Positions 15,065 to 37,777 of a stretch of DNA of 46,824 bases are shown here, piece after piece. A program made the position numbers and the translations under genes. This DNA is from a virus. Taxonomy: Duplodnaviria > Heunggongvirae > Uroviricota > Caudoviricetes. The stretch is taken from IMG/VR virus record IMGVR_UViG_2541047840_000001; one strand, 5' to 3'. The notes beneath the pieces were generated by a model that was not told the origin of the DNA, did no database searches, and worked only from the letters and a program-made list of their open reading frames with translations. Numbering within the stretch: position 1 is the first letter of the stretch; each line of letters begins with the position of its first letter.

Positions 15065-15156
15065 AGCATTGCTGAAATGTCTTTTTCAAGACCTTGCCAA
15101 TAAGCTAAACAAAAATGTTTAATGCTTCGCCTAAAAAAACACCAGTTACTATTATT

Positions 15157-15258
15157 TATATAATTATAGATTTATATAAAAAGCGCTTTACAGGTGGGAA
15201 AAAATTTCCTAAGGTTATACCCGAAACCGAGCGATACCCGCCCTGGTTAAACCGGAGA
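15157..15258 (+). repeat. 102-bp regulatory module, copy A (AT-rich promoter-like box + conserved leader + GGAGA RBS)
   Basis: Identical to 24097-24198 except one mismatch (C at 15184 vs T at 24124); ends 7 nt before ATG of 15266. Confidence 0.85.
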
Positions 15259-15265
15259 TAACCCG

Positions 15266-15646
15266 ATGAGCATGATTAAAATCCGCAAAAACGCTTTCCT
15301 TAAAATTCAAACTATCCTGGCTGGTTCTGTTGGCGTGATTTGCCGTTCTTCCTCAAGCCGCATCGATGACGGCTACGATGATGAGTATCGTGTGTCCTCA
15401 TGCGATGAGGCTTTAACCTGGCTGAAGGAGAATCAGGAACGTGCCCAGGTATATCTGGAAACAGAGAACGGCAATCAGATGCTGCGTATTAGCGGTCGTT
15501 ATGGATTTGAAACTACATTCATGGCCTATTTTAATCAGGCTTACTTTGACAAGGAGTTGGCTTGGTACACTGATCGCATGAGCAAAAGCGAGCCAGCCCC
15601 GATTACACCGCCGAACAATAAACCATTTTTATTCCTCGTTAAGTAA
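15266..15646 (+). CDS. Hypothetical protein (126 aa)
   Basis: ORF with GGAGA RBS 7 nt upstream; no recognisable family. Confidence 0.55.
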   Translation: MSMIKIRKNAFLKIQTILAGSVGVICRSSSSRIDDGYDDEYRVSSCDEALTWLKENQERAQVYLETENGNQMLRISGRYGFETTFMAYFNQAYFDKELAWYTDRMSKSEPAPITPPNNKPFLFLVK

Positions 15647-18161: not shown

Positions 18162-18917
18162 GGTGATAGTTCCCTTAAAGGTTAAGGATACTCACCACCG
18201 TCTGGTTCCAATCATTGGGTGGTGAGACGTACAGGGTTGGAACTACCGGTCACCATGGAATCCGGCGAGTCTTACGACTCCCCCGCACGCCCCACCATAA
18301 TTTGGGTGTAGCAGTGCTTTACGCATAAAAAAACCGCTAACGCGGTATGCGCCATGATGATTATCGGGGTTCCAATCCCGGTCGTAGATTTTGCTACGGC
18401 TCGGAAAGTGTCCACCAATGGCGCATTCATGTCAATACGGCGGGATTTTAACAGAGACAACCACATAGCGTGGGTTTATTGGTAGGCAGAAACAAAAAAA
18501 CCGCCCTATTGAGGACGGTTCTTTCGTGCTGATCGGATTCGCGGTCCTTTCAGCATTACGTTGTTGTATAAACAACCACGCAAGCACAAGCAGCAAGTTA
18601 ATTTTACCCAAAAGGTAATAATAGTCCACTATTATGCTTCATAAAATTGTGGTTCTTGTTGTGCCTGCAAACTCACAGATTGTGGGTAGGTTACTGATTT
18701 TGTGAAAATAAACTGGTTTTTTCGTTTAATTTATTTCCTATTACTAATCTTAAAATAATCGTAAAATACCTGTGGACCTTCCCGCCGATTCGCACCCGGG
18801 CACCGACTTTAGGGGAGGATTTCCTGTTGCCGTACATGCAAGCACAAGCAGCCGTGCTTGCTCTCGCGTTGTTTTCGTCGGTGGGGATGCCGTGAAACGG
18901 CCTGTAAGGGCCATACA

Positions 18918-19040
18918 ATGAAAAAATACTGTATGTGTATTTTTATCGTTGTTACTGGGGCTTTGTTTACGCCACATGGGGAGGGTTGGAAGATTACTGA
19001 TAACGCTCTGAATGTGACGATAAACATTAGCAGCAAGTAG
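18918..19040 (+). CDS. Candidate small hydrophobic peptide (40 aa)
   Basis: ATG 18918 with AAGG RBS inside a short hairpin; translation MKKYCMCIFIVVTGALFTPHGEGWKITDNALNVTINISSK; strong terminator immediately downstream. Confidence 0.3.
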   Translation: MKKYCMCIFIVVTGALFTPHGEGWKITDNALNVTINISSK

Positions 19041-19045
19041 CGATT

Positions 19046-19068
19046 AGGCCCCTTCGGGGGCCTTTTTT
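19046..19068 (+). terminator. Rho-independent terminator
   Basis: AGGCCCC-TTCG-GGGGCCT followed by TTTTTT. Confidence 0.65.
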
Positions 19069-19290: not shown

Positions 19291-19539
19291 TTACTTCTGG
19301 TTGTATTGAGCCTTGAGTAACTCAAAAGATTTTGTCAGCACTTCTTTCAATGACATATCCATTGAGCTGGCGAACGTTTTGTACTCGCGTTTAAATTCAG
19401 GGTCGACGTTAAACGCCATTTGTGCCCCACCTGATTTGGTTCTGGTCGGCGTTTCAGTCGGGTCGAAAACCTGCGGTTGTTCGATTGATGGCGGTACGCC
19501 TTTGCTGTTCTTTTTCGGTGGTTTTGATGGTGCGGCCAT
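19291..19539 (-). CDS. ParG-like ribbon-helix-helix partition protein
   Basis: 82 aa, disordered N-terminus then FNVDPEFKREYKTFASSMDMSLKEVL, resembling the ParG RHH region as recalled; directly downstream of parA-like gene. Confidence 0.6.
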   Translation of the reverse strand: MAAPSKPPKKNSKGVPPSIEQPQVFDPTETPTRTKSGGAQMAFNVDPEFKREYKTFASSMDMSLKEVLTKSFELLKAQYNQK

Positions 19540-19549
19540 GTGTATCCCC

Positions 19550-19584
19550 TTTTATATAAATCTATAAAACTATAATTATATATT
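19550..19584. repeat. AT-rich dispersed motif copy (TTTTATATAAATCTATAA...TATAATTATATA)
   Basis: Shares TATAAATCTATA and TATAATTATATA cores with other copies; lies between parA stop and parG start. Confidence 0.6.
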
Positions 19585-20236
19585 ACGCGGCAGTAGTCAG
19601 AGCCTCAAGCTGATTGATAATCCCCTGGATAACATCGTCTGCCTTTTTGCGTGGCGCAACGTATGAGCACTCAATGAGGCTTAAGCCCTTATCCTGAGCT
19701 TTGCTCAGAGCTGGCTTGTGGGGAATGTACTTATCGACAACAAAGTATGGCGTATTAGCCAGGTACTCTTGGGCTTCAATATAGTCAGCTTCGTTTTCAG
19801 CCGCGCCGGAAAACACCATGCAAATTTTCTTGATTGGTACACCCTTTTTAACGATGCCGTGAGCTGTGTTAACGGTGGTTTCCAGGTCATCGGTAGAGAA
19901 TCTGGTTGGCAAAATAACCATATCCAGAAATTCAGAGAGCTTCGGTACTGATTCAGATGCGTAGGCACCGCCATCGACGATAACCAAGTCGTATACTTCT
20001 GATTCGATGATTTTCTGGACTTGTGATGGTGTGCCGCACGGCTGCGCCGCGATTGCTGGTTCGATATTGTTGGCCATTCTGCGTTGTACCCAACGCGTTA
20101 CCGTTCCGTTAAGCACATCCATATCGATCAGGCATACATTCCAGCCAGCCTTTGCATAAGCAACTGCTAAAGCACGGGCAATTGTTGATTTGGTTACGCC
20201 GCCTTTTCCGTTGAAAATACCTACAGAGATAGTCAT
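19583..20236 (-). CDS. ParA/ParF-family partition ATPase
   Basis: Deviant Walker A GKGGVTKST near N-terminus; probable start at second ATG (20236) with GGAG RBS; track ORF extends to 20251. Confidence 0.85.
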   Translation of the reverse strand: MTISVGIFNGKGGVTKSTIARALAVAYAKAGWNVCLIDMDVLNGTVTRWVQRRMANNIEPAIAAQPCGTPSQVQKIIESEVYDLVIVDGGAYASESVPKLSEFLDMVILPTRFSTDDLETTVNTAHGIVKKGVPIKKICMVFSGAAENEADYIEAQEYLANTPYFVVDKYIPHKPALSKAQDKGLSLIECSYVAPRKKADDVIQGIINQLEALTTAA

Positions 20237-20257
20237 TTGTCGAGACTCCATGTGTTT

Positions 20258-24035: not shown

Positions 24036-24096
24036 AAGTGTCATTTTGAGCTGTTTTGATGGTGTGTAGATATCGGGAACATCGAAAATCTATAAA

Positions 24097-24198
24097 TATA
24101 TAATTATAGATTTATATAAAAAGTGCTTTACAGGTGGGAAAAAATTTCCTAAGGTTATACCCGAAACCGAGCGATACCCGCCCTGGTTAAACCGGAGA
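24097..24198 (+). repeat. 102-bp regulatory module, copy B
   Basis: One mismatch to 15157-15258; ends 7 nt before ATG of 24205. Confidence 0.85.
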
Positions 24199-24204
24199 AA
24201 TCTG

Positions 24205-25272
24205 ATGAATAAACAAGTAATTATTTCTGACTGGATCAACAACCCTAACAGCCTGTTAAGCACTGATACTGGCTACCTATTACGCCATGTTAATGGTCGT
24301 ATGGTCAAAAGCGATGAGCACGAAACCTTTTTCTTTGTTGAAGATGATGGGCGTATCTATGAGGATGGTTACTCTTATGAAGCCCAAACTGGTTGTATCC
24401 CTGCGGAGCTGGTGGACGTAACAGAAGATCTGCGCAAAGCATGGCTTGAACAGCAGCAGCGCGGAGATGATTACGTAAACACCTATCAGGAACGCCAGAA
24501 CGCGCGTCTTGCCCGATATATTGCTCGTGCAGAAAAAGCCAGAAAAGAAGGTGCGGTAGCGCATAAGCGAGCGCATGACCTGTTGGATGTGATCCCGTTA
24601 GGCCAGCCGATTTTAGTTGACCATTATAGCGCGAAAGGCCATCGCCGCCGTTTGTCTAAAGCTGATGCGTTATTAAGAAAAGCGTTTGTTGAATGCGAAA
24701 GTAAAGCATCACACTACGAGAGCAAAGCCGCAGGTGTTGGTCGTAATGGAATTTCGTCTGATGATCCTGATGCGCTATTTAAGTTGCTTCGTAAGCTGCA
24801 AGGCTGCATGAAGTCACACGTCAAAATGAAGGCCGCAAATAAGGCCATTCGCAAATACAAAAAAGACCAATTACAGCAGCTTTCTGCATTAATCGATCTC
24901 AGGTTTACAGAAAGCGAAGCCAAAGAGTTACTGGCCGGAGATTTCTGTGGGCGCATCGGATTCCCTTCATACGTACTGAGCAACAATAACGCCGAGATCA
25001 AACGACTACAGAGCCGTATTAAGGAGCTTGAATCGGTCAAGTCTGTAACAGGAGCACAGCGCGAAGAATACGACGACTTTTCTATGGAGATAGATCCAGA
25101 GGATAACCGCATCCTGTTTTATTTCCCTGGCAAACCAGAGGCAAACATTCGTTCGCTGCTTAAATCACGCGCCTTTAAGTGGAGTCCAACCCGTAATGCA
25201 TGGATTCGCAAAATTACTCCAAATGCCCTGGCTGATGCCCGATATCTGAAAGAATCGCTATTGAAAGCCTGA
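24205..25272 (+). CDS. DUF3560-like protein (function unknown)
   Basis: 355 aa; C-terminal ILFYFPGKP...KWSPTRNAWIRK segment recalled from the DUF3560 family. Confidence 0.55.
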   Translation: MNKQVIISDWINNPNSLLSTDTGYLLRHVNGRMVKSDEHETFFFVEDDGRIYEDGYSYEAQTGCIPAELVDVTEDLRKAWLEQQQRGDDYVNTYQERQNARLARYIARAEKARKEGAVAHKRAHDLLDVIPLGQPILVDHYSAKGHRRRLSKADALLRKAFVECESKASHYESKAAGVGRNGISSDDPDALFKLLRKLQGCMKSHVKMKAANKAIRKYKKDQLQQLSALIDLRFTESEAKELLAGDFCGRIGFPSYVLSNNNAEIKRLQSRIKELESVKSVTGAQREEYDDFSMEIDPEDNRILFYFPGKPEANIRSLLKSRAFKWSPTRNAWIRKITPNALADARYLKESLLKA

Positions 25273-30170: not shown

Positions 30171-30246
30171 GGCCCCTTAGCTCAGTGGTTAGAGCAGGCG
30201 ACTCATAATCGCACGGTCATCGGTTCAAATCCGGTAGGGGCCACCA
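30171..30246 (+). tRNA. tRNA with CAU anticodon (closest to tRNA-Ile2 type; tRNA-Met not excluded)
   Basis: 7-bp acceptor stem GGCCCCT/AGGGGCC, anticodon loop CTCATAA, T-loop GGTTCAAATCC, 3' CCA encoded; 5' half matches E. coli ileX as recalled from memory. Confidence 0.8.
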
Positions 30247-30554
30247 ATTCACTCTCACACATAAAGATAAGCGCGGTGGAGTTACTTCCTTCGTGCTCAT
30301 CTTTATGCGTGCCTGGTGCGCATTTCGGGCGAACGTGGGGCTAAGTTACAGGCAGGGCCTGTTATCCGCAAAGGGGTAAAAGCTGGAGCGGCGCGGAACT
30401 GTAGCCGTGTTACCAAAACAGCGTTGTCGGGCGATATCCGGCACACAACAGGCAAGGGCATTAATCAGTCTGGTTAGTGCCCTTTTCGTTGTGTTTGCTG
30501 TAGGGCTGGCCAGCATTATGACTGCCGGAGATAAGCGCCGGAGGCACAACTAAC

Positions 30555-31091
30555 ATGGAGGCAATTGCATTGTTTAATCTGATTTATGCAGATCCCCCCT
30601 GGGAATACAAAGACAAGTGTAAGGATGGGAATCGTGGCGCTGGTTTTAAGTATCCAACGATGAAAGCTGAGGAGATTGCTCGTATTCCTGTCTGGCAGCT
30701 TGCTAATCCTGAATCGTGTTTGTTGGCCATGTGGTGGGTTCCGACTCAGCCAGAAGAAGCGTTGCTGGTGGTGAAAGCATGGGGATTCAGGCTGATGACC
30801 ATGAAGGGCTTCACATGGAACAAATGTGGTAGCCGACAACCAGATAAGCTGGTGATGGGGATGGGGCATATGACTCGTGCAAACAGTGAAGATTGCTTGT
30901 TTGCAGTGAAAGGCAAACTACCGACACGTCTTGATGCGGGGATCATTCAGTCGTTTACATCGCCTCGTCTGGAGCATTCTCGGAAGCCTGATGTGGTCCG
31001 TGACAAGCTGGTAAGGCTGTTAGGTGATGTTCCTCGTATTGAGCTGTTTGCTCGCGGTGATTTACCTGATGAGCAAAGATGTTTTCGCTAG
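30555..31091 (+). CDS. MT-A70-family DNA N6-adenine methyltransferase
   Basis: DPPW catalytic motif in IYADPPWEY near N-terminus. Confidence 0.75.
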   Translation: MEAIALFNLIYADPPWEYKDKCKDGNRGAGFKYPTMKAEEIARIPVWQLANPESCLLAMWWVPTQPEEALLVVKAWGFRLMTMKGFTWNKCGSRQPDKLVMGMGHMTRANSEDCLFAVKGKLPTRLDAGIIQSFTSPRLEHSRKPDVVRDKLVRLLGDVPRIELFARGDLPDEQRCFR

Positions 31092-31220
31092 ACTAAAAGA
31101 AATTAGCAATGAGCCATTGGCTGTTATGAAGGATGTTGGTGTAGAACTTCTCAAGTCATTGGCAAAGAAGAAGTTTGGTTTATCTGATTAGTGCAGATAC
31201 CTGTTTGCTATTTATTTATA

Positions 31221-31249
31221 AAACCACCTGCGGGTGGTTTTGTTTTTTT
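31221..31249 (+). terminator. Rho-independent terminator
   Basis: AAACCACC-TGCG-GGTGGTTT followed by TGTTTTTTT. Confidence 0.6.
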
Positions 31250-31483
31250 AGCATTACAGCAGCTCTTGTGCTTACCAGGGGCTGCGATAATGCGCAAACC
31301 AAAGCTGCCTCATTAACTCCAGCTCGCTGTGGAGTTAATGCTGGTGGCTTTTTTATTACTGGAAGGTGGGCGACCGCCGTCAGTTGCGACCTGACGACAG
31401 TCATTCATACCCACAGGGTGCCGTGGATACAAACCGAGGCCCACTTGCTTGCACAAGCGAGGGGATTTTAGCGGATAAACGGC

Positions 31484-32107
31484 ATGACAAAACATCTTAA
31501 TGTGGTTTCTTTACCACTTTCTGTGTTGATTGGTTATGAAAAGAACGCTCGCACACACTCCGTGGAGCAGGTAGATCAGATTGTTGCCAGCATACAGGAG
31601 TACGGATGGACTAATCCGATCCTGATAGACGAGAACAACGTTGTAATTGCTGGTCATGGTCGAATTGCTGCGGCCACTCAGTTGGGGATGGATGATGTTC
31701 CCTGCATTGTTCTGGAAGGGCTAACGGAGAATCAGAAGAAGGCATATCGTCTGGCCGACAACCGTATTCCGCTGAATGCTGGTTGGGATGAAGAGTTGTT
31801 AAGCGCGGAGCTTGCAGATCTTGCGGCCGATGATTTTGCTCTGGACTCAATTGGTTTTACTCAGCGCGAACTGGATAACTTATTGAGTGCGGCGGTCTAC
31901 GATGACACAGAGGGTATGGATATCCCATTTGAGAAGGATGAGGCCAAATCAGGCGTAAAAGTTCAGTACCTGTCATTTGGAGGTCATAAAATCCCGGCAA
32001 CGGATGAGGAAGCGGATCGTTTTGACTGCGCGGTGTCTCGTTATGTTGATGATAATGGCAGCTATATCGGATTTGTATCCGCATTGCTGGCTGGGGAGGT
32101 GTGCTGA
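31484..32107 (+). CDS. ParB N-terminal (ParB/Srx nuclease-like) domain protein
   Basis: IAGHGRIAAA motif; clear paralog of 34774..35364. Confidence 0.65.
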   Translation: MTKHLNVVSLPLSVLIGYEKNARTHSVEQVDQIVASIQEYGWTNPILIDENNVVIAGHGRIAAATQLGMDDVPCIVLEGLTENQKKAYRLADNRIPLNAGWDEELLSAELADLAADDFALDSIGFTQRELDNLLSAAVYDDTEGMDIPFEKDEAKSGVKVQYLSFGGHKIPATDEEADRFDCAVSRYVDDNGSYIGFVSALLAGEVC

Positions 32108-33480
32108 TGCTTCACCTCAATTACGACATAACGCACCTACGCGGTGCGGAATATAACCCGCGTTTTATCGGTGAGGATGATCTTGCGAGGCTGGCGGAAA
32201 GCGTCAGGGAGCTAGGGCTTGTGAAGCCATTGATAGTGCGCGGCGATTTGCTGGTGGCGGGACACCAAAGGACGAAGGCGCTACGTAAGTTGGGAATAAC
32301 GCGTGCTGCGGTGTATGTGTTGCCCTGTGAAACGACGGTATACGACGAAGTACGGTTTAACCAACTGCATAACGGAACGGATTTTGATAGCGGAGATGAG
32401 CGTTGCAGGGTGTCCGGTCTGGAAGATAAGCATGGTTTTGTTCAGGTATCGGCAAGCCAGATCTCAGGCAATATGCGCGCGAAAATGGCATATGTTCGAA
32501 AGAACATAGCGGAACTGGTTATCAAGTATGGTCCGTGGGGTGGTTGTGTTGCTACTCAGTCTGGCGAGGTTATTCACTGTGCTCAGTATGCATTAGCAGC
32601 GAAGATGACGCGCACACCGCTAACGGTGTTTGTGATCCCTGATGTTGAGAAGGAAAAATACCAAAGTTATCTGAATAAAACTTATGGTGTATTTGAGTAT
32701 TCTCATCTGGAGAAAACAACATACATCCAGACGTATGCGCAGCTTATGCGGTTGCGTAATGGTGGCAGCCTGAAATCAAACCTGTATGAGTCGTTGATCC
32801 TCCCGATCATTGCCAAGACGCCAAGAGGAATTGATTTTGGTTCGGGGCAGGGAGACTACGCGCGAATGCTCAGGGCAAAGGGATATAACCTGCATGATCT
32901 CGAGCTTTTCCGCCGTAAGGGCGCTGGAAACACTCTGGATAGGGCCGCAACAAACTGGATGATTGATACGCTGGTGGACGACTTAAAAACGCGAGGGCGT
33001 TACGACTACGTGATTTGCGATAGCGTTTTGAACTCGGTCGATAGTGTCGAGGCTGAATGGTCCGTTCTGACGGTTCTGAAAGGCCTGTGTAAAGCTGGTG
33101 GGTCAATATTCTTTTCTGGTCGTAGCCGTGGAGAGCTGGAAACAGTCCTGAAGCAAACACAAGCGGCGAGTTCCAAAAGCCGGCTTTATTTTATTGATCA
33201 TAACGGTTTTACCGCGTTGTACCGGAAGGGGCACTGGTTTTACCAGAAGTTTCACTCTGATGATGAAGTGAAGCAGTTGTGTCGTGTACATGGTTTCAGG
33301 ATTAAGCGGTCAATATTCAACTGTAAGAGCTGGTATTTGCACGTCATTAACGATGATTCCCTTAGTTGGGCGAGTCTGGAGAAAGCTGTTCGTTTTGAGT
33401 TTGAGTTGCCGTTGCCTGGTGGTTCAACAATCGGACGATCTGATGATGTGCTGGCGGCTTTCCGGCCGTTGATTAAGTAG
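32107..33480 (+). CDS. Fusion protein: ParB-like N-terminal domain plus SAM-dependent methyltransferase-like domain
   Basis: N-terminal LVAGHQRTKAL ParB-like motif; central GIDFGSGQGDY Rossmann SAM-binding motif; ATG overlaps upstream stop (TGATG). Confidence 0.6.
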   Translation: MLHLNYDITHLRGAEYNPRFIGEDDLARLAESVRELGLVKPLIVRGDLLVAGHQRTKALRKLGITRAAVYVLPCETTVYDEVRFNQLHNGTDFDSGDERCRVSGLEDKHGFVQVSASQISGNMRAKMAYVRKNIAELVIKYGPWGGCVATQSGEVIHCAQYALAAKMTRTPLTVFVIPDVEKEKYQSYLNKTYGVFEYSHLEKTTYIQTYAQLMRLRNGGSLKSNLYESLILPIIAKTPRGIDFGSGQGDYARMLRAKGYNLHDLELFRRKGAGNTLDRAATNWMIDTLVDDLKTRGRYDYVICDSVLNSVDSVEAEWSVLTVLKGLCKAGGSIFFSGRSRGELETVLKQTQAASSKSRLYFIDHNGFTALYRKGHWFYQKFHSDDEVKQLCRVHGFRIKRSIFNCKSWYLHVINDDSLSWASLEKAVRFEFELPLPGGSTIGRSDDVLAAFRPLIK

Positions 33481-33496
33481 TGTGTAGGAGGCGCTG

Positions 33497-34216
33497 GTGG
33501 CTGACAGAATTGAGATAAAGATGGATTTTTCTTCTCAGGATATTCAACGACAACTCCAGCGCCTTGAAGAACGCGAATTGCCGTTCGCAATGGCGCTTGC
33601 GGCAACCAGAACGGCAAAGGCTTCTCAGGCTGCGATTAAGAATGAAATTAATCGGGTATTTGACAGGCCCACGCCGTGGATTCAGAACTCTACTTACGTT
33701 TTGGCCGCAAAGAAGAGTGATCCTACAGCCATTGTGTATGCTCGTGAATGGGGAGGAACGCCAGCCCCTGTAACGTTGACTCCGCAAATCGAAGGTGGAC
33801 AACGACAGTACAAACGCTCAGAAGGGGCGCTAAGGGCTGGTGGATATTTGCCTAACGGCTGGCAGCTTGCTCCTGGTCCCGGCGCAAAGCTGGACAAATA
33901 TGGGAATATTTCGCGGGGGCAATTACAGCAGGTCTTATCTGGCCTAAGAGTTCAGCGAGATGCGCATCAAAATCGCCGTCAGGGCAAGCCTACGGAGTTT
34001 TTTGTTGTTCGACCAGGTACAAGTAACCCGCTTCAACCAGGCGTCTGGCAGCGCGTTGGGCGGCGTCCTACGTTGATCCTTACGTTTATCCAGCAACCTA
34101 ACTATTCGCAGCGTCTTGATTGGCATGGCGTGGCGCTGCGTGCTGGTGAGGATGCGTTTGCTGATGAAGTCACAAAGGCTATTGATGACATTCTTTCTAA
34201 GACTTTCTCTCGTTAA
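33497..34216 (+). CDS. Hypothetical protein (239 aa)
   Basis: ORF with GGAGG RBS; no family recognised. Confidence 0.55.
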   Translation: MADRIEIKMDFSSQDIQRQLQRLEERELPFAMALAATRTAKASQAAIKNEINRVFDRPTPWIQNSTYVLAAKKSDPTAIVYAREWGGTPAPVTLTPQIEGGQRQYKRSEGALRAGGYLPNGWQLAPGPGAKLDKYGNISRGQLQQVLSGLRVQRDAHQNRRQGKPTEFFVVRPGTSNPLQPGVWQRVGRRPTLILTFIQQPNYSQRLDWHGVALRAGEDAFADEVTKAIDDILSKTFSR

Positions 34217-34773
34217 TCATCGTGTGGTTGATGGTGTTGTTATGCAGAGTGTATTCACTGTGTTCTGTAGCGTCGCTCGCTGGCTGTCTGTGGGGGAGCA
34301 CGAGCATCGTTTCATCGTCCGGCAGAATTGGGTCCTTCTGGCCAAAAGCGTTGGATGCGGGTCATTCGAACCCCGATATTCGGCTAGCTAAACGTGAAAA
34401 AAGTTAGGTTAAAAGTTGCGGTAAAAGAAATTTACCCATCTCATTGAAAAATATTGGGAAAACGTGATTTTTTGCTGTGCTTGTGATGGTGAAAAGAAAG
34501 TAGAGAATTTTCTTTTAGATCATCAAGATACGCGCAGATCTTTAACCAATGTGATGTTGTTCTGATAAAAATCGTTATAAATCATGCAAATACATCCAAT
34601 CTTTTAACCAAAACACCATCTCAAGATCCTTTTCACTTATAAAAACTTAATAAAATCAGATGATTATGCTGGTTTGTGTGATTTTTTATGAGTAAAAAGA
34701 TCGTCATTTTTCTCTTTTAGTATCAATAAGTTAAACAGTTTTCTTTAACCTGTTGTGTTATGGCGGTTAAAAA

Positions 34774-35364
34774 ATGGCTCTAAAAATCGAATATTTACCA
34801 GTCGGTAAGCTGCTCAGATACGCCAAAAATTCACGGACTCATTCAGATGAGCAGGTTGAACAGTTGGTGAACAGTATCCGTGAGTTCGGTTTCACTAATC
34901 CTGTGCTGATCGATGAAAAGAATGAACTGATTGCGGGGCATGGTCGGCTTGCAGCAGCCGAAATTCTTGAAATGGATAAAGTTCCGGCGATTCGGTTGAG
35001 TAACCTTTCTGAAAAACAGAAGAAGGCTTACAGGATTGCAGATAACAAGCTGGCCTTAAATGCTGGCTGGGATATGCAGCTTCTGGCCGAAGAAGTCAAA
35101 GAGTTAATGGATGATGATTTTGATATTGATCTGCTTGGGTTTAATGATGCAGAGCTTGACGAAATGTTAAGCGATGAACAGCCGGAGGAAGAAGACGATA
35201 ATTCTTCCCCTGTTGTTCAAATTAAGTACCTGGCTATTGATAAAGAACGTATTCCCGCGACGGATATGGAAATTGCATTGTTGCTGGATGTTTATCGTCA
35301 GTACCACGACGCGCATGAAACGCATGAGGGATTTGTTCAGTATCTTGCTAATGGTTGCAAGTAA
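34774..35364 (+). CDS. ParB N-terminal domain protein (paralog), coupled to terminase small subunit
   Basis: IAGHGRLAAA motif; shares blocks QKKAYR-ADN and LNAGWD with 31484..32107; stop overlaps TerS start. Confidence 0.65.
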   Translation: MALKIEYLPVGKLLRYAKNSRTHSDEQVEQLVNSIREFGFTNPVLIDEKNELIAGHGRLAAAEILEMDKVPAIRLSNLSEKQKKAYRIADNKLALNAGWDMQLLAEEVKELMDDDFDIDLLGFNDAELDEMLSDEQPEEEDDNSSPVVQIKYLAIDKERIPATDMEIALLLDVYRQYHDAHETHEGFVQYLANGCK

Positions 35365-35915
35365 TGGCCATCGTCAGTAAGTCAGAGTTTGCCCGCCGGA
35401 AAGGTATTTCTCCGGCAATGGTTACGAAGCTCTGTCGTTCCGGTCGCATTCCAGTGCTGAAAAGCGGCAAGCTGGATTTTGATAAAGCAAGTGCGGCTTA
35501 TGAAGCGAGCCGACAGGTTGGTCGTGAGGTATCTGCTGAAAACGGAAAAAGAGGGCATGGGATATCTTCGGAACAACCAGAGTTACCCGCTGATGATGCC
35601 GGATTAGCTGGTGGTACTTCCGGTGTTGCGGTGCAATTCAACAAGGCTAAGACCGCAGAAAAAATTTATCAGGCAAAGCTGAAACGCCTTGAATTTGAAG
35701 AAAAGGAAGGCTCTCTCATCGCTAAAGATGCGGTCAGGGATGATGCATTTCTGGCAGCTAATGAATTGCGTAGCCGCTTATTTAGTATTGCTCCAAGAGC
35801 AGCTCCCCGTTGTGAAGGCAAAACAGCTAGGGAGATCGAACGCATTATTGAAGACGAGATTAATTTTGCGCTCCAGGCGCTCCAGGAATCCCGATTTATT
35901 AAGCAGGAAGAATAA
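35364..35915 (+). CDS. Terminase small subunit (Nu1-like, N-terminal HTH)
   Basis: Position immediately upstream of large terminase; N-terminal SKSEFARRKGISPAMVTKL resembles the lambda Nu1 HTH region as recalled. Confidence 0.6.
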   Translation: MAIVSKSEFARRKGISPAMVTKLCRSGRIPVLKSGKLDFDKASAAYEASRQVGREVSAENGKRGHGISSEQPELPADDAGLAGGTSGVAVQFNKAKTAEKIYQAKLKRLEFEEKEGSLIAKDAVRDDAFLAANELRSRLFSIAPRAAPRCEGKTAREIERIIEDEINFALQALQESRFIKQEE

Positions 35916-35920
35916 ACCTC

Positions 35921-37777
35921 ATGGGCGAAACAGTATGGAGCACCGCTTTTTTCCGTGCGCTTCGCCCTAAATCACGGCTAACTGTTTCCGAATGGGCTGA
36001 TAAGTATCGTCATGTAGCGCCGGGAACGTCTCCAGAGCCAGGGCCGTGGCGTACAAGCCGAGTGCCATATTTGCGTGAACCAATGGATGTTATTGGTGAC
36101 GCTGATACAGAAACAGTAGTGATGCAATGTAGCTCGCAAATTGGTAAATCCGAATTACAGCTAAATGTTATGGGTTACTTTGCAGATCAGGAGCCATCTC
36201 CTCAGTTGATGATTTATCCAACGGTAGAGGCGGCTGAGGCTTTTTCAAAGGAGCGTATTGATCCGACGTTCAAATATTCCCCTGGTTTGAAACACAAGCT
36301 GCATGAAGGGAAAGAGGGGCGCGGTGCAGCCAAAAAGTCCAGCACGACTATACGTATGAAGCATTACGCTGGTGGATATATAGCACTTGTTGGTGCTAAT
36401 TCCCCAGCAGGTCTTGCATCCAGGCCAATTCGAATACTGTTAGCTGATGAGATTGATCGTTATGGTGTGACGCAGGAGGGCGACCCACTAAAACTAGGTA
36501 TTCAGCGTACTACCAACTTTCATAATCGTAAGAAAGTTTTTGTTTCTACTCCTGTTTTGGAGGAAACGAGCAAAATCCACAAGTGGTTTAAGCTCTCCGA
36601 TCAGCGTTACTACCATGTTCCTTGTCCATGTTGTGGCACCATGCAGGTGATGAAATGGTCGCAAGTCAGATGGGATAAGAGCGATTCAGGTGAGGCGTTA
36701 CCGGAAACGGCCAGATATGAGTGCTGTGAGTGCGGCGGGATTATGCGCGGATCTGGTAAACCAGACGTTGATTGGTTGGCAAAGGGGGTATGGATAGCTG
36801 AACATACTGGAGTTAAAGGTATTGTTGGTTTTCATATTAACAGTCTTTACTCCCCGTGGGTTGCATTGTCAGAGCTGGTTGAAGAATTTACGGAAGCAAC
36901 CAGAAACCGCGATAAAAATGGATTAATGGAGTTTATTAACCTTAAGCTGGGTGAGCCATGGAAAGAGGATGCTAAAGACGATATCGATCCTGAATACTTG
37001 TTGCAACGCAGAATAAGGTTTGAAGAGTTTTTACCAGATGATGTTTTATTGTTAAGTGCTGGTGTTGACGTACAGGACACGTATTTAGTTTGTGAATTGG
37101 TCGGTTGGGGAAAAGGTAAGGAGTCATGGGGGATAGAATATAAAATATTCCCAGGTGATCCCGCACAAGATGTTGTCTGGAAACAACTTGATGAATACTT
37201 ACTCCGTAGCTGGTCATTCCGTGACGGTCGAAAATTACAGATTTCTTCTGTTTGTATTGACTCTGGTGGGCATTTTACGACAGAGGTATATCGTTTTACT
37301 AAGCCGAGAGAATCAAGGCGAATATACTCTATCAGGGGGCGTGGTGGGGTAGGTTTACCATTTATAGGAAAGCCAAGTAATAATAACCGTGTGGGTGCTA
37401 TGTTGTTTAATTTGGGGGTTGATGATGGTAAAGGGACCATCATGGCAAGAATTAAACTACATGATCCTGGTCCTGGTTATATGCATTTCCCATTAGATTC
37501 TGACAGAGGATATGATACTGAATACTTTAAAGGATTATTATCAGAGAAAAAAATATTTGAATATAAAAATGGGCAGACAAAAGAAAAGTGGGTGAAAGTC
37601 TACGAGCGTAACGAGCCTCTTGATTGCCGTAACTATGCAACTGCCGCGATGGAAATTCTGAACCCTAATTTTAACTGGCTTGCCGAACAGGAAATGCGAG
37701 GTAATGTGTATGTGCAGAACTCGTCAGGTATACGTAGAAGACGCCGTAGAGTTATAAGTAAAGGCGTAACCATATAG
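35921..37777 (+). CDS. Terminase large subunit (lambda gpA-like)
   Basis: 618 aa; size and gene order match lambda gpA. Confidence 0.85.
   Translation: MGETVWSTAFFRALRPKSRLTVSEWADKYRHVAPGTSPEPGPWRTSRVPYLREPMDVIGDADTETVVMQCSSQIGKSELQLNVMGYFADQEPSPQLMIYPTVEAAEAFSKERIDPTFKYSPGLKHKLHEGKEGRGAAKKSSTTIRMKHYAGGYIALVGANSPAGLASRPIRILLADEIDRYGVTQEGDPLKLGIQRTTNFHNRKKVFVSTPVLEETSKIHKWFKLSDQRYYHVPCPCCGTMQVMKWSQVRWDKSDSGEALPETARYECCECGGIMRGSGKPDVDWLAKGVWIAEHTGVKGIVGFHINSLYSPWVALSELVEEFTEATRNRDKNGLMEFINLKLGEPWKEDAKDDIDPEYLLQRRIRFEEFLPDDVLLLSAGVDVQDTYLVCELVGWGKGKESWGIEYKIFPGDPAQDVVWKQLDEYLLRSWSFRDGRKLQISSVCIDSGGHFTTEVYRFTKPRESRRIYSIRGRGGVGLPFIGKPSNNNRVGAMLFNLGVDDGKGTIMARIKLHDPGPGYMHFPLDSDRGYDTEYFKGLLSEKKIFEYKNGQTKEKWVKVYERNEPLDCRNYATAAMEILNPNFNWLAEQEMRGNVYVQNSSGIRRRRRRVISKGVTI

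Follow-up and report, generated by a model that had tools for sequence, protein, structure and literature searches.

A small ParB-like protein and a ParB-methyltransferase fusion form a conserved phage gene pair ahead of the packaging genes in an Escherichia coli phage-plasmid

Here we examine a 46,824-bp stretch of viral DNA, IMG/VR record IMGVR_UViG_2541047840_000001 (the window, by which we mean this whole stretch), and in particular its positions 30,555 to 35,364, where an MT-A70 methylase, two small ParB-like proteins (ParB1 and ParB2), a ParB-methyltransferase fusion and a protein of 239 amino acids (aa) are encoded ahead of the terminase genes. A sequence-only reading had grouped these genes as a single DNA-modification or anti-restriction island, possibly linked to packaging. 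The open reading frames (ORFs) that it named all exist on the + strand where it had placed them, and Pfam bears out its ParB domain fused to a methyltransferase (ParB_N and Methyltransf_23). The region, which lies at the packaging end of a circular E. coli phage-plasmid, is a mosaic and not one system. Within this mosaic, comparison of homologs and gene order identifies ParB1 and the fusion as a widespread, conserved and uncharacterised phage gene pair that stands just before packaging genes. The pair and the second small ParB gene are as follows.

31484..32107, + strand: ParB1, a small acidic protein of the ParB/Srx fold, 207 aa, isoelectric point (pI) 4.3, the conserved partner of the fusion (phrog_620, E 2.9e-74).
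32107..33480, + strand: the fusion, consisting of ParB_N, a conserved middle domain and a class I S-adenosylmethionine (SAM) methyltransferase (MTase), 457 aa, pI 9.1 (phrog_5475; Pfam ParB_N and Methyltransf_23).
34774..35364, + strand: ParB2, a small acidic ParB/Srx-fold paralog, 196 aa, pI 4.5, the first gene after the probable cos site (phrog_620, E 5.9e-75).

The genes for ParB1 and the fusion overlap by TGATG, with a GGAGG Shine-Dalgarno sequence in front. A scan of IMG/VR yielded 74 full-length fusion loci, which fell into 48 clusters at 90% identity; 42 of these clusters were informative for an upstream ParB. In 35 of the 42, a small ParB gene on the same strand ended no more than 150 nt upstream of the fusion, and in 40 no more than 900 nt. 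The viral fusion clusters were 33-90% identical to the fusion of the window, and ParB1 shared 39-50% identity with the small ParBs encoded ahead of the fusion in distant phages. In metagenomic phages with 45-46% identity, the gene order was small ParB, overlapping fusion, a Cys/His-rich protein of 143-144 aa, small terminase (TerS) and large terminase (TerL) of the gpA type; a locus in a Bradyrhizobium genome likewise showed ParB, fusion and a Cys-rich protein. Furthermore, the pair was found ahead of at least three unrelated packaging systems, namely gpA, Terminase_2 with Terminase_6C, and HNH with Terminase_4 and a TerL_ATPase/nuclease. The Cys/His-rich protein followed the fusion within 200 nt in 23 of the 48 clusters. 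This ~144-aa family has invariant W, HC, Y.CG, N.H and CRN elements (L006 2210-2644, L008 8516-8947, L004 9419-9883 and ~20 more viral loci) and no match in Pfam, PHROG or the Protein Data Bank (PDB). In the window, the gene for the 239-aa protein stands where the Cys/His-rich gene stands elsewhere, and this protein follows the fusion only in the two E. coli-type clusters among the 48.

The fusion matched phrog_5475 over nearly its whole length (residues 3-459 on profile positions 1-457 of 458, E 5.8e-265), and more than 772 homologs of about 460 aa with 45-99% identity were found in Enterobacterales, Bradyrhizobium and Xanthobacteraceae genomes and in metagenomes. When residues 100-457 were used as the query, 414 clusters at 50% identity were recovered, nearly all of proteins of 455-490 aa in which the match started at about residue 100-135. 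Thus, the middle and MTase parts occur essentially only behind a ParB domain. The AlphaFold2 model of the fusion had a predicted local distance difference test score (pLDDT) of 94.5 and a predicted template modelling score (pTM) of 0.90. In a full-length alignment of 79 homologs, NPR, AGHQR and FNQLHNGTD were invariant in the ParB domain, as were DFGSGQG (SAM motif I), E266 and D305 in the MTase domain, where many Arg and Lys residues were also conserved. The family profile aligned with cytidine diphosphate-bound Bacillus subtilis Spo0J (6sdk) at E 1.5e-8, QPR of Spo0J corresponding to NPR and GERR to GHQR. With its fixed architecture and intact SAM motifs, the fusion looks like an active, dedicated enzyme. 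In residues 110-190, the order of predicted secondary-structure elements echoes that of residues 1-90; a second ParB/Srx-like domain in this segment received an hhalign probability of only ~0.1 and no Pfam match, and the modelled similarity is at most a hint of a degenerate second domain.

PHROG ParB families matched ParB1, ParB2 and the fusion alike. With PF02195 (cut-off 26.3 bits), ParB2 scored above the threshold at 33.7 bits, and ParB1 (24.8 bits) and the fusion (24.3 bits) fell slightly under it. The two small proteins are paralogs, as had been proposed; they are 48% identical and both match phrog_620 over the full length. Their Box II reads GHGR, that of the fusion GHQR, and both align to GERR of Spo0J and ParB. 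Hence the phosphate-binding arginine of Box II is kept in all three proteins, whose Box II has His in place of the catalytic Glu of GERR. Pfam and NCBIfam profile searches of ParB1 and ParB2 revealed neither a helix-turn-helix (HTH) nor any other DNA-binding domain. Both match the first ~150 residues of ParB-N6_N4 MTase fusions (phrog_498, PADLOC PDLC03229) at E 1e-38 to 1e-52, and residues 1-145 of ParB2 share 45-60% identity with the N-termini of phage ParB-DNA-methylase fusions; for ParB2 these relatives were taken from the phage collection, the general homolog search being dominated by near-identical E. coli sequences. A resemblance to DndB had also been raised. The PADLOC search of these proteins returned MTase_II models only and no Dnd model, and no Dnd-like gene is annotated in the element, which speaks against a role in Dnd phosphorothioation.

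The genes and sites around these three genes are listed below.

30171..30246, + strand: tRNA with a CAU anticodon, context outside the region (tRNA-Met according to ARAGORN; Rfam tRNA, 67 bits; the RefSeq ortholog is called tRNA-Ile).
30454..30484, + strand: terminator-like hairpin upstream of the MT-A70 gene, with a 14-bp stem followed by a T-run.
30555..31091, + strand: predicted MT-A70 N6-adenine DNA methyltransferase, C-terminally truncated, with 172 native and 6 foreign residues (PF05063, E 4.8e-20; phrog_359, E 7e-95).
31218..31243, + strand: strong hairpin resembling an intrinsic terminator, between the deletion scar and ParB1, with an 11-bp stem followed by TTTTTTT.
33497..34216, + strand: 239-aa basic protein with an HK97-gp10-like (neck/tail-completion) fold (fold match; phrog_1924, E 2.5e-97).
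34360..34371, no strand: probable cosN with the 12-nt cohesive end GGTCATTCGAAC (GenBank record termini of Yersinia phages).
34407..34771, no strand: AT-rich spacer with five clustered GGTTAAA heptamers, i.e. 5 of the window's 12 copies within 365 bp, in both orientations.
35364..35915, + strand: TerS, context (phrog_57, E 7.4e-42).
35921..37777, + strand: TerL of the lambda gpA type, context (GpA_ATPase, E 7e-76; GpA_nuclease, E 1e-84).

At 98-99% identity, the window aligned end to end with pP136-7 (NZ_CP080230.1) and other circular E. coli plasmids of ~48 kb, and also with Yersinia phages vB_YpM_39, vB_YpM_41 and vB_YpM_44 and Escherichia phage vB_EcoM-613R2. Since the annotation of pP136-7 combines myovirus genes and a lambda gpA-type terminase with RepA, ParA, a RelE/ParE toxin-antitoxin pair and an invertase, we identify the window from these alignments as a complete ~47-kb E. 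coli phage-plasmid. Indeed, in complete E. coli genomes the element was located on a plasmid in 75 of the 76 matching places.

The records of the Yersinia phages also point to the ends of the virion DNA. That of vB_YpM_39 starts at window position 34360 and that of vB_YpM_41 ends at 34359, whereas that of vB_YpM_44 ends at 34371 and starts at 34372. Because independent phage records thus break at two points (34359/34360 and 34371/34372) that lie exactly 12 nt apart, 34360-34371 is probably a lambda-type cos site with a 12-nt cohesive end. Such a site would place the MT-A70 gene, ParB1, the fusion and the 239-aa gene at the right end of the virion DNA, and ParB2, TerS and TerL at the left. The GC content shifts at this site: it is 0.47-0.51 between 29 and 34 kb and 0.41-0.46 thereafter. 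The GGTTAAA cluster of the adjoining spacer is a candidate for cosB/TerS or ParB2 binding sites. At the far end of ParB2, the translational coupling to TerS that had been noticed before was found as a TAATG overlap.

The MT-A70 gene was correctly recognised from its DPPW motif: PF05063 gave 72.6 bits (cut-off 23.9), MT-A70 proteins in the PDB matched at E 5e-13, and the catalytic motif lies in YADPPWEY at residues 11-18 (DPPW at 13-16). The PF05063 match ends at profile position 161 of 172, and in the alignment to the 195-aa ortholog the gene is truncated. Compared with pP136-7, Yersinia phage vB_YpM_39 and all other relatives, the window has lost 1,745 bp: a deletion with its junction at 31071 takes the last 23 MT-A70 codons, including GWHGWGN, and replaces them by 6 unrelated residues; it also takes four small ORFs together with the greater part of a DUF2513 gene. 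Among the 69 complete E. coli genomes carrying the element, none spans the junction, and the deletion is private to this contig. As this strain-private deletion removes a conserved C-terminal segment, the MT-A70 protein is probably inactive in this element. Its gene is bracketed by the two hairpins at 30454-30484 and 31218-31243, which set it apart from ParB1, and the stretch from MT-A70 to ParB1 is a variable accessory hotspot.

Homologs of the MT-A70 protein were found in 515 phage records; the copies in Stx2 phages are 73% identical and p32 of Serratia phage BZS1 is 42% identical. BZS1 p32 was shown by experiment to be GATC-specific, and family homologs lie near the integrase, not the terminase, in other phages (PMC7556043). 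In view of these wide homologs and the integrase-side location elsewhere, the MT-A70 protein is by analogy an ordinary Dam-like orphan phage N6-methyladenine (m6A) methylase with an independent distribution and a predicted activity. Its likeness to such orphans lies in the Pfam family and the size, but the copy in the window lacks the last 23 residues, and its gene lies near the terminase here.

The 239-aa protein had been called unknown. It is no orphan, in that it matches phrog_1924, although no Pfam (including PF04883) or NCBIfam match was obtained. It shares the HK97 gp10-family fold, and it is encoded upstream of terminases in phages without ParB genes in the examined flanks. On the strength of its modelled fold, we regard it as a virion neck-type protein with a role separate from that of the ParB genes. 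Compared with the HK97 gp10-family neck protein of 80alpha/SaPI1 (PDB 9mu2 chain P), however, it is twice as long, and its gene lies upstream of cos and not in the head-tail module.

The MT-A70 family and the 239-aa protein thus occur independently elsewhere and the probable cos site splits the region, so that it does not constitute one module. We reject a single coherent modification or anti-restriction island in view of the terminator-like hairpins, the probable cos site, the 1,745-bp deletion and the separate gene distributions. As judged from profile matches, every component belongs to a catalogued family.

Some further observations concern the element outside this region. If the tRNA at 30171-30246 is a tRNA-Ile, as the RefSeq call has it, this would imply a lysidine-modified Ile2. 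A near-identical cassette of ~115 nt is present at 15150-15269 and 24091-24209 (also L001 4147-4267); it combines a palindromic, AT-rich stretch with the promoter-like sequence TTTACA…TAAGGT, a leader and a GGAGA ahead of an ATG, with different genes behind the copies, and is probably a co-regulated early promoter with its leader. Relatives have a third copy downstream of MT-A70, which the deletion has removed from the window. Rfam also matched P1/P7-type immunity RNAs, C4 antisense RNA at 18215-18302 and isrK at 18327-18400 (both minus), which suggests an immunity controlled by antisense RNA, and ryfA at 18772-19068 (plus).

Genes in the same slot of other phages, and published work on ParB-like proteins, bear on what the pair might do. 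In Psychrobacter phage pOW20-A, a protein with ParB_N and N6_N4_Mtase domains (gp39) is encoded two genes before TerL. In the Rac-like Escherichia phage vB_EcoS-885R8, the gene for a 263-aa ParB_N protein overlaps that for a TET-associated glycosyltransferase (TAGT; PF20691, 310 aa; L018 2213-3929), and this ParB and TAGT pair, of a common E. coli prophage type, lies directly upstream of TerS and TerL. A ParB-like gene that stands alone frequently opens or closes the phage genome. ParB genes have been specifically linked to post-replicative modification pathways (bioRxiv 10.1101/2023.12.21.572611), and in 2026 a phage ParB was shown to activate a DNA-modifying enzyme: a small ParB without a DNA-binding domain activates a thymine dioxygenase on double-stranded DNA (PMC13229309). 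Part of what had been proposed on sequence-only grounds therefore stands, in that a ParB gene with a modifying enzyme before the terminase is a widespread theme in phages, but the region here is not one such unit.

The ParB176 and 5mYOX176 proteins of that study resemble the pair in that a small ParB, which has a nucleotide-binding domain but no obvious domain for DNA binding, is encoded beside a post-replicative enzyme of nucleic-acid modification. In contrast, the enzyme in the window, known here from its sequence, is a SAM methyltransferase with its own ParB domain and not an iron/2-oxoglutarate dioxygenase. Similarly, the ParB-N6_N4 MTase fusions (phrog_498; pOW20-A gp39) share the ParB part and the pre-terminase slot, but they carry a canonical DPPY-type N6_N4 MTase, whereas an enzyme domain is absent from ParB1 and ParB2, and the fusion belongs to another MTase class. 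The closest published description is that of ParB-Methyltransf_23 fusions by Kaljević et al. 2025 (PMC12704722). In the accessible parts of that paper, fusions of a ParB-CTPase fold to Methyltransf_23 (PF13489), which correspond to PHROG 5475 and have the same architecture and the same enrichment in phages and prophages, are listed with no function assigned, and DNA methylation or anti-defence is offered as a guess; a ParB-SAM-MTase fusion is described there as binding ATP, and the ParB/Srx fold as including kinases and switches that bind ATP, CTP or GTP. To this listing, as far as those parts go, the present analysis adds the small ParB encoded upstream as an obligatory partner, the conserved middle domain, the location ahead of the terminase and a catalytic motif unlike that of DNA MTases. 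Literature searches on the Yersinia phages and the RefSeq protein accessions returned nothing relevant, and for pP136-7 one unrelated epidemiology paper.

We tentatively favour, as quite possible, the reading that ParB1 and the fusion carry out a late, ParB-assisted methylation of phage DNA or of a DNA-bound target before packaging, with a chemistry that is probably not m6A, N4-methylcytosine (m4C) or 5-methylcytosine (m5C). The two proteins would act jointly as a nucleotide-gated methyltransferase. The ParB domains would serve as a switch or activator that is gated by nucleoside triphosphate (NTP) and engages DNA, and shortly before packaging the MTase of the fusion would place its mark on the replicated phage DNA or on a substrate bound to DNA. 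Such a mark may shield the progeny genomes from host systems or let host systems recognise them. Joint action is suggested by the conservation of the pair, the gene overlap, the invariant NTP and SAM motifs, the slot shared with DNA modifiers and the complementary charge of the basic fusion (pI 9.1) and the acidic ParBs (pI 4.3 and 4.5). From these we infer a complex of ParB1 with the fusion, a DNA substrate, late timing and a protective role.

Several observations weigh against this late methylation of DNA. The MTase of the fusion has neither the (D/N/S)PP(Y/F/W) motif IV nor PCQ, the segment in question being an invariant CDSVLNSVD, and Pfam found no N6_N4_Mtase, N6_Mtase or DNA_methylase domain in the protein. 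There was no DNA methyltransferase among the 50 best Foldseek PDB matches of the MTase domain; its best Foldseek and PDB profile matches were UbiG, Trm9, METTL6/9, GNMT and natural-product types, i.e. small-molecule, tRNA and protein MTases. Nor are any hypermodification enzymes encoded in the window from which an unusual substrate base could come. Late timing rests on gene position, and no promoter was identified. Finally, the 144-aa Cys/His-rich third protein of about half of the distant modules has no homolog in the window, so that the module here may be incomplete or work differently. The suggestion of a novel modification pathway is accordingly retained only in part: as the MTase is not a canonical DNA methylase, a non-standard mark is possible, but the Dnd-like form is unsupported.

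The position of these genes invites a role in packaging itself. The ParB-like proteins could bind or nick DNA near cos or organise concatemers, and the MTase could act as a regulator, for example by methylating cos or a packaging protein. ParB genes lie immediately before TerS and TerL in nearly every genome examined, ParB2 is coupled to TerS as the first gene after the probable cos site, and the GGTTAAA sites cluster between the two. Nicking by ParB domains fused to methylases has been reported (PMC5512222, citing work on Bce_0392). As for methylation, phage P1 is a precedent: there, Sternberg and Coulby reportedly showed in 1990 that Dam methylation gates pac cleavage. However, the pair precedes three mechanistically different terminases, which makes a terminase-specific role, and with it the specific link to a packaging mechanism that had been proposed, unlikely. 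Moreover, phages with closely similar packaging genes have no ParB genes in the examined flanks, the small ParBs are acidic and show no detectable DNA-binding domain, gpA terminases bring their own nuclease domain, and our literature search found no experimental work connecting ParB-like proteins with terminase. On balance we consider an accessory role in packaging rather unlikely.

Counter-defence or host takeover would instead have the ParB/Srx domain recruit a nucleotide, RNA or protein for methylation by the MTase; signalling nucleotides, tRNAs and host defence proteins are candidates. This would suit the kinship of the MTase domain, in fold and sequence, with small-molecule, tRNA and protein MTases, and the accessory hotspot between MT-A70 and ParB1. 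The breadth of the ParB/Srx fold, which spans kinases and NTP-binding switches, fits as well, and anti-defence roles are suggested by the authors of PMC12704722. Against it, a position at the head of the packaging operon is more in keeping with a late action on progeny DNA than with an early takeover, the ParB domains find their nearest relatives in domains that are fused to true DNA methylases, and the fusion is strongly basic with many conserved Arg and Lys residues in the MTase domain. We find this explanation rather doubtful.

A distinctly unlikely version of the late methylation that we favour would have ParB1 and the fusion form an NTP-gated ParB-type clamp that loads onto replicated DNA, takes a non-canonical methyltransferase along the DNA and protects the progeny by a methyl mark other than m6A, m4C or m5C, for instance at a ring nitrogen, at an oxygen or in the backbone. 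Clamps of the ParB family can also regulate transcription (KorB-KorA, as cited in PMC13229309), and the ParB-like proteins might, like KorB, Noc or IbrB, switch or silence late genes near cos. In one relative (L009), a gene for a Mor-like activator lies directly upstream of the small ParB, and the repeated GGTTAAA motif lies upstream of ParB2. Yet the lack of a detectable HTH or DNA-binding domain in ParB1 and ParB2 tells against such regulators, which would also leave the invariant, apparently active SAM-MTase domain unexplained; we hold this to be very unlikely. Plasmid partition, with the ParB-like proteins as centromere-binding proteins of the phage-plasmid, is suggested by the GenBank label 'chromosome (plasmid) partitioning protein' and the plasmid location of the element, but is extremely improbable and was rejected, because the element has its own partition locus ~11 kb away (19291-20251, minus: a Walker-type ParA of 222 aa at 19583-20251, then an 82-aa partner resembling ribbon-helix-helix proteins), the ParB-like proteins have neither an HTH nor a C-terminal dimerisation domain and score 16-40 bits with TIGR00180 (cut-off 58.45) with the N-domain alone aligned, and the genes are also present at a chromosomal locus of Bradyrhizobium and in phages that are not plasmids.

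The domain architecture of the fusion is already catalogued; the conserved two-gene unit, its slot and the type of MTase are the additions made here. Proteins of the ParB fold have only recently been seen as nucleotide switches outside chromosome segregation, and the pair is widespread (414 clusters at 50% identity), lies in the slot of proven or predicted DNA modifiers, and carries an MTase that is not of the DNA-methylase type. The E. coli phage-plasmid family is abundant and inducible and grows on laboratory hosts as Yersinia and Escherichia phages, which makes it tractable for a substrate search. An ordinary mark or a non-DNA substrate would reduce the finding to the routine annotation of a mosaic phage region. 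If the clamp on replicated DNA were true, in turn, hundreds of phage lineages would possess a new type of DNA methylation, one driven by ParB.

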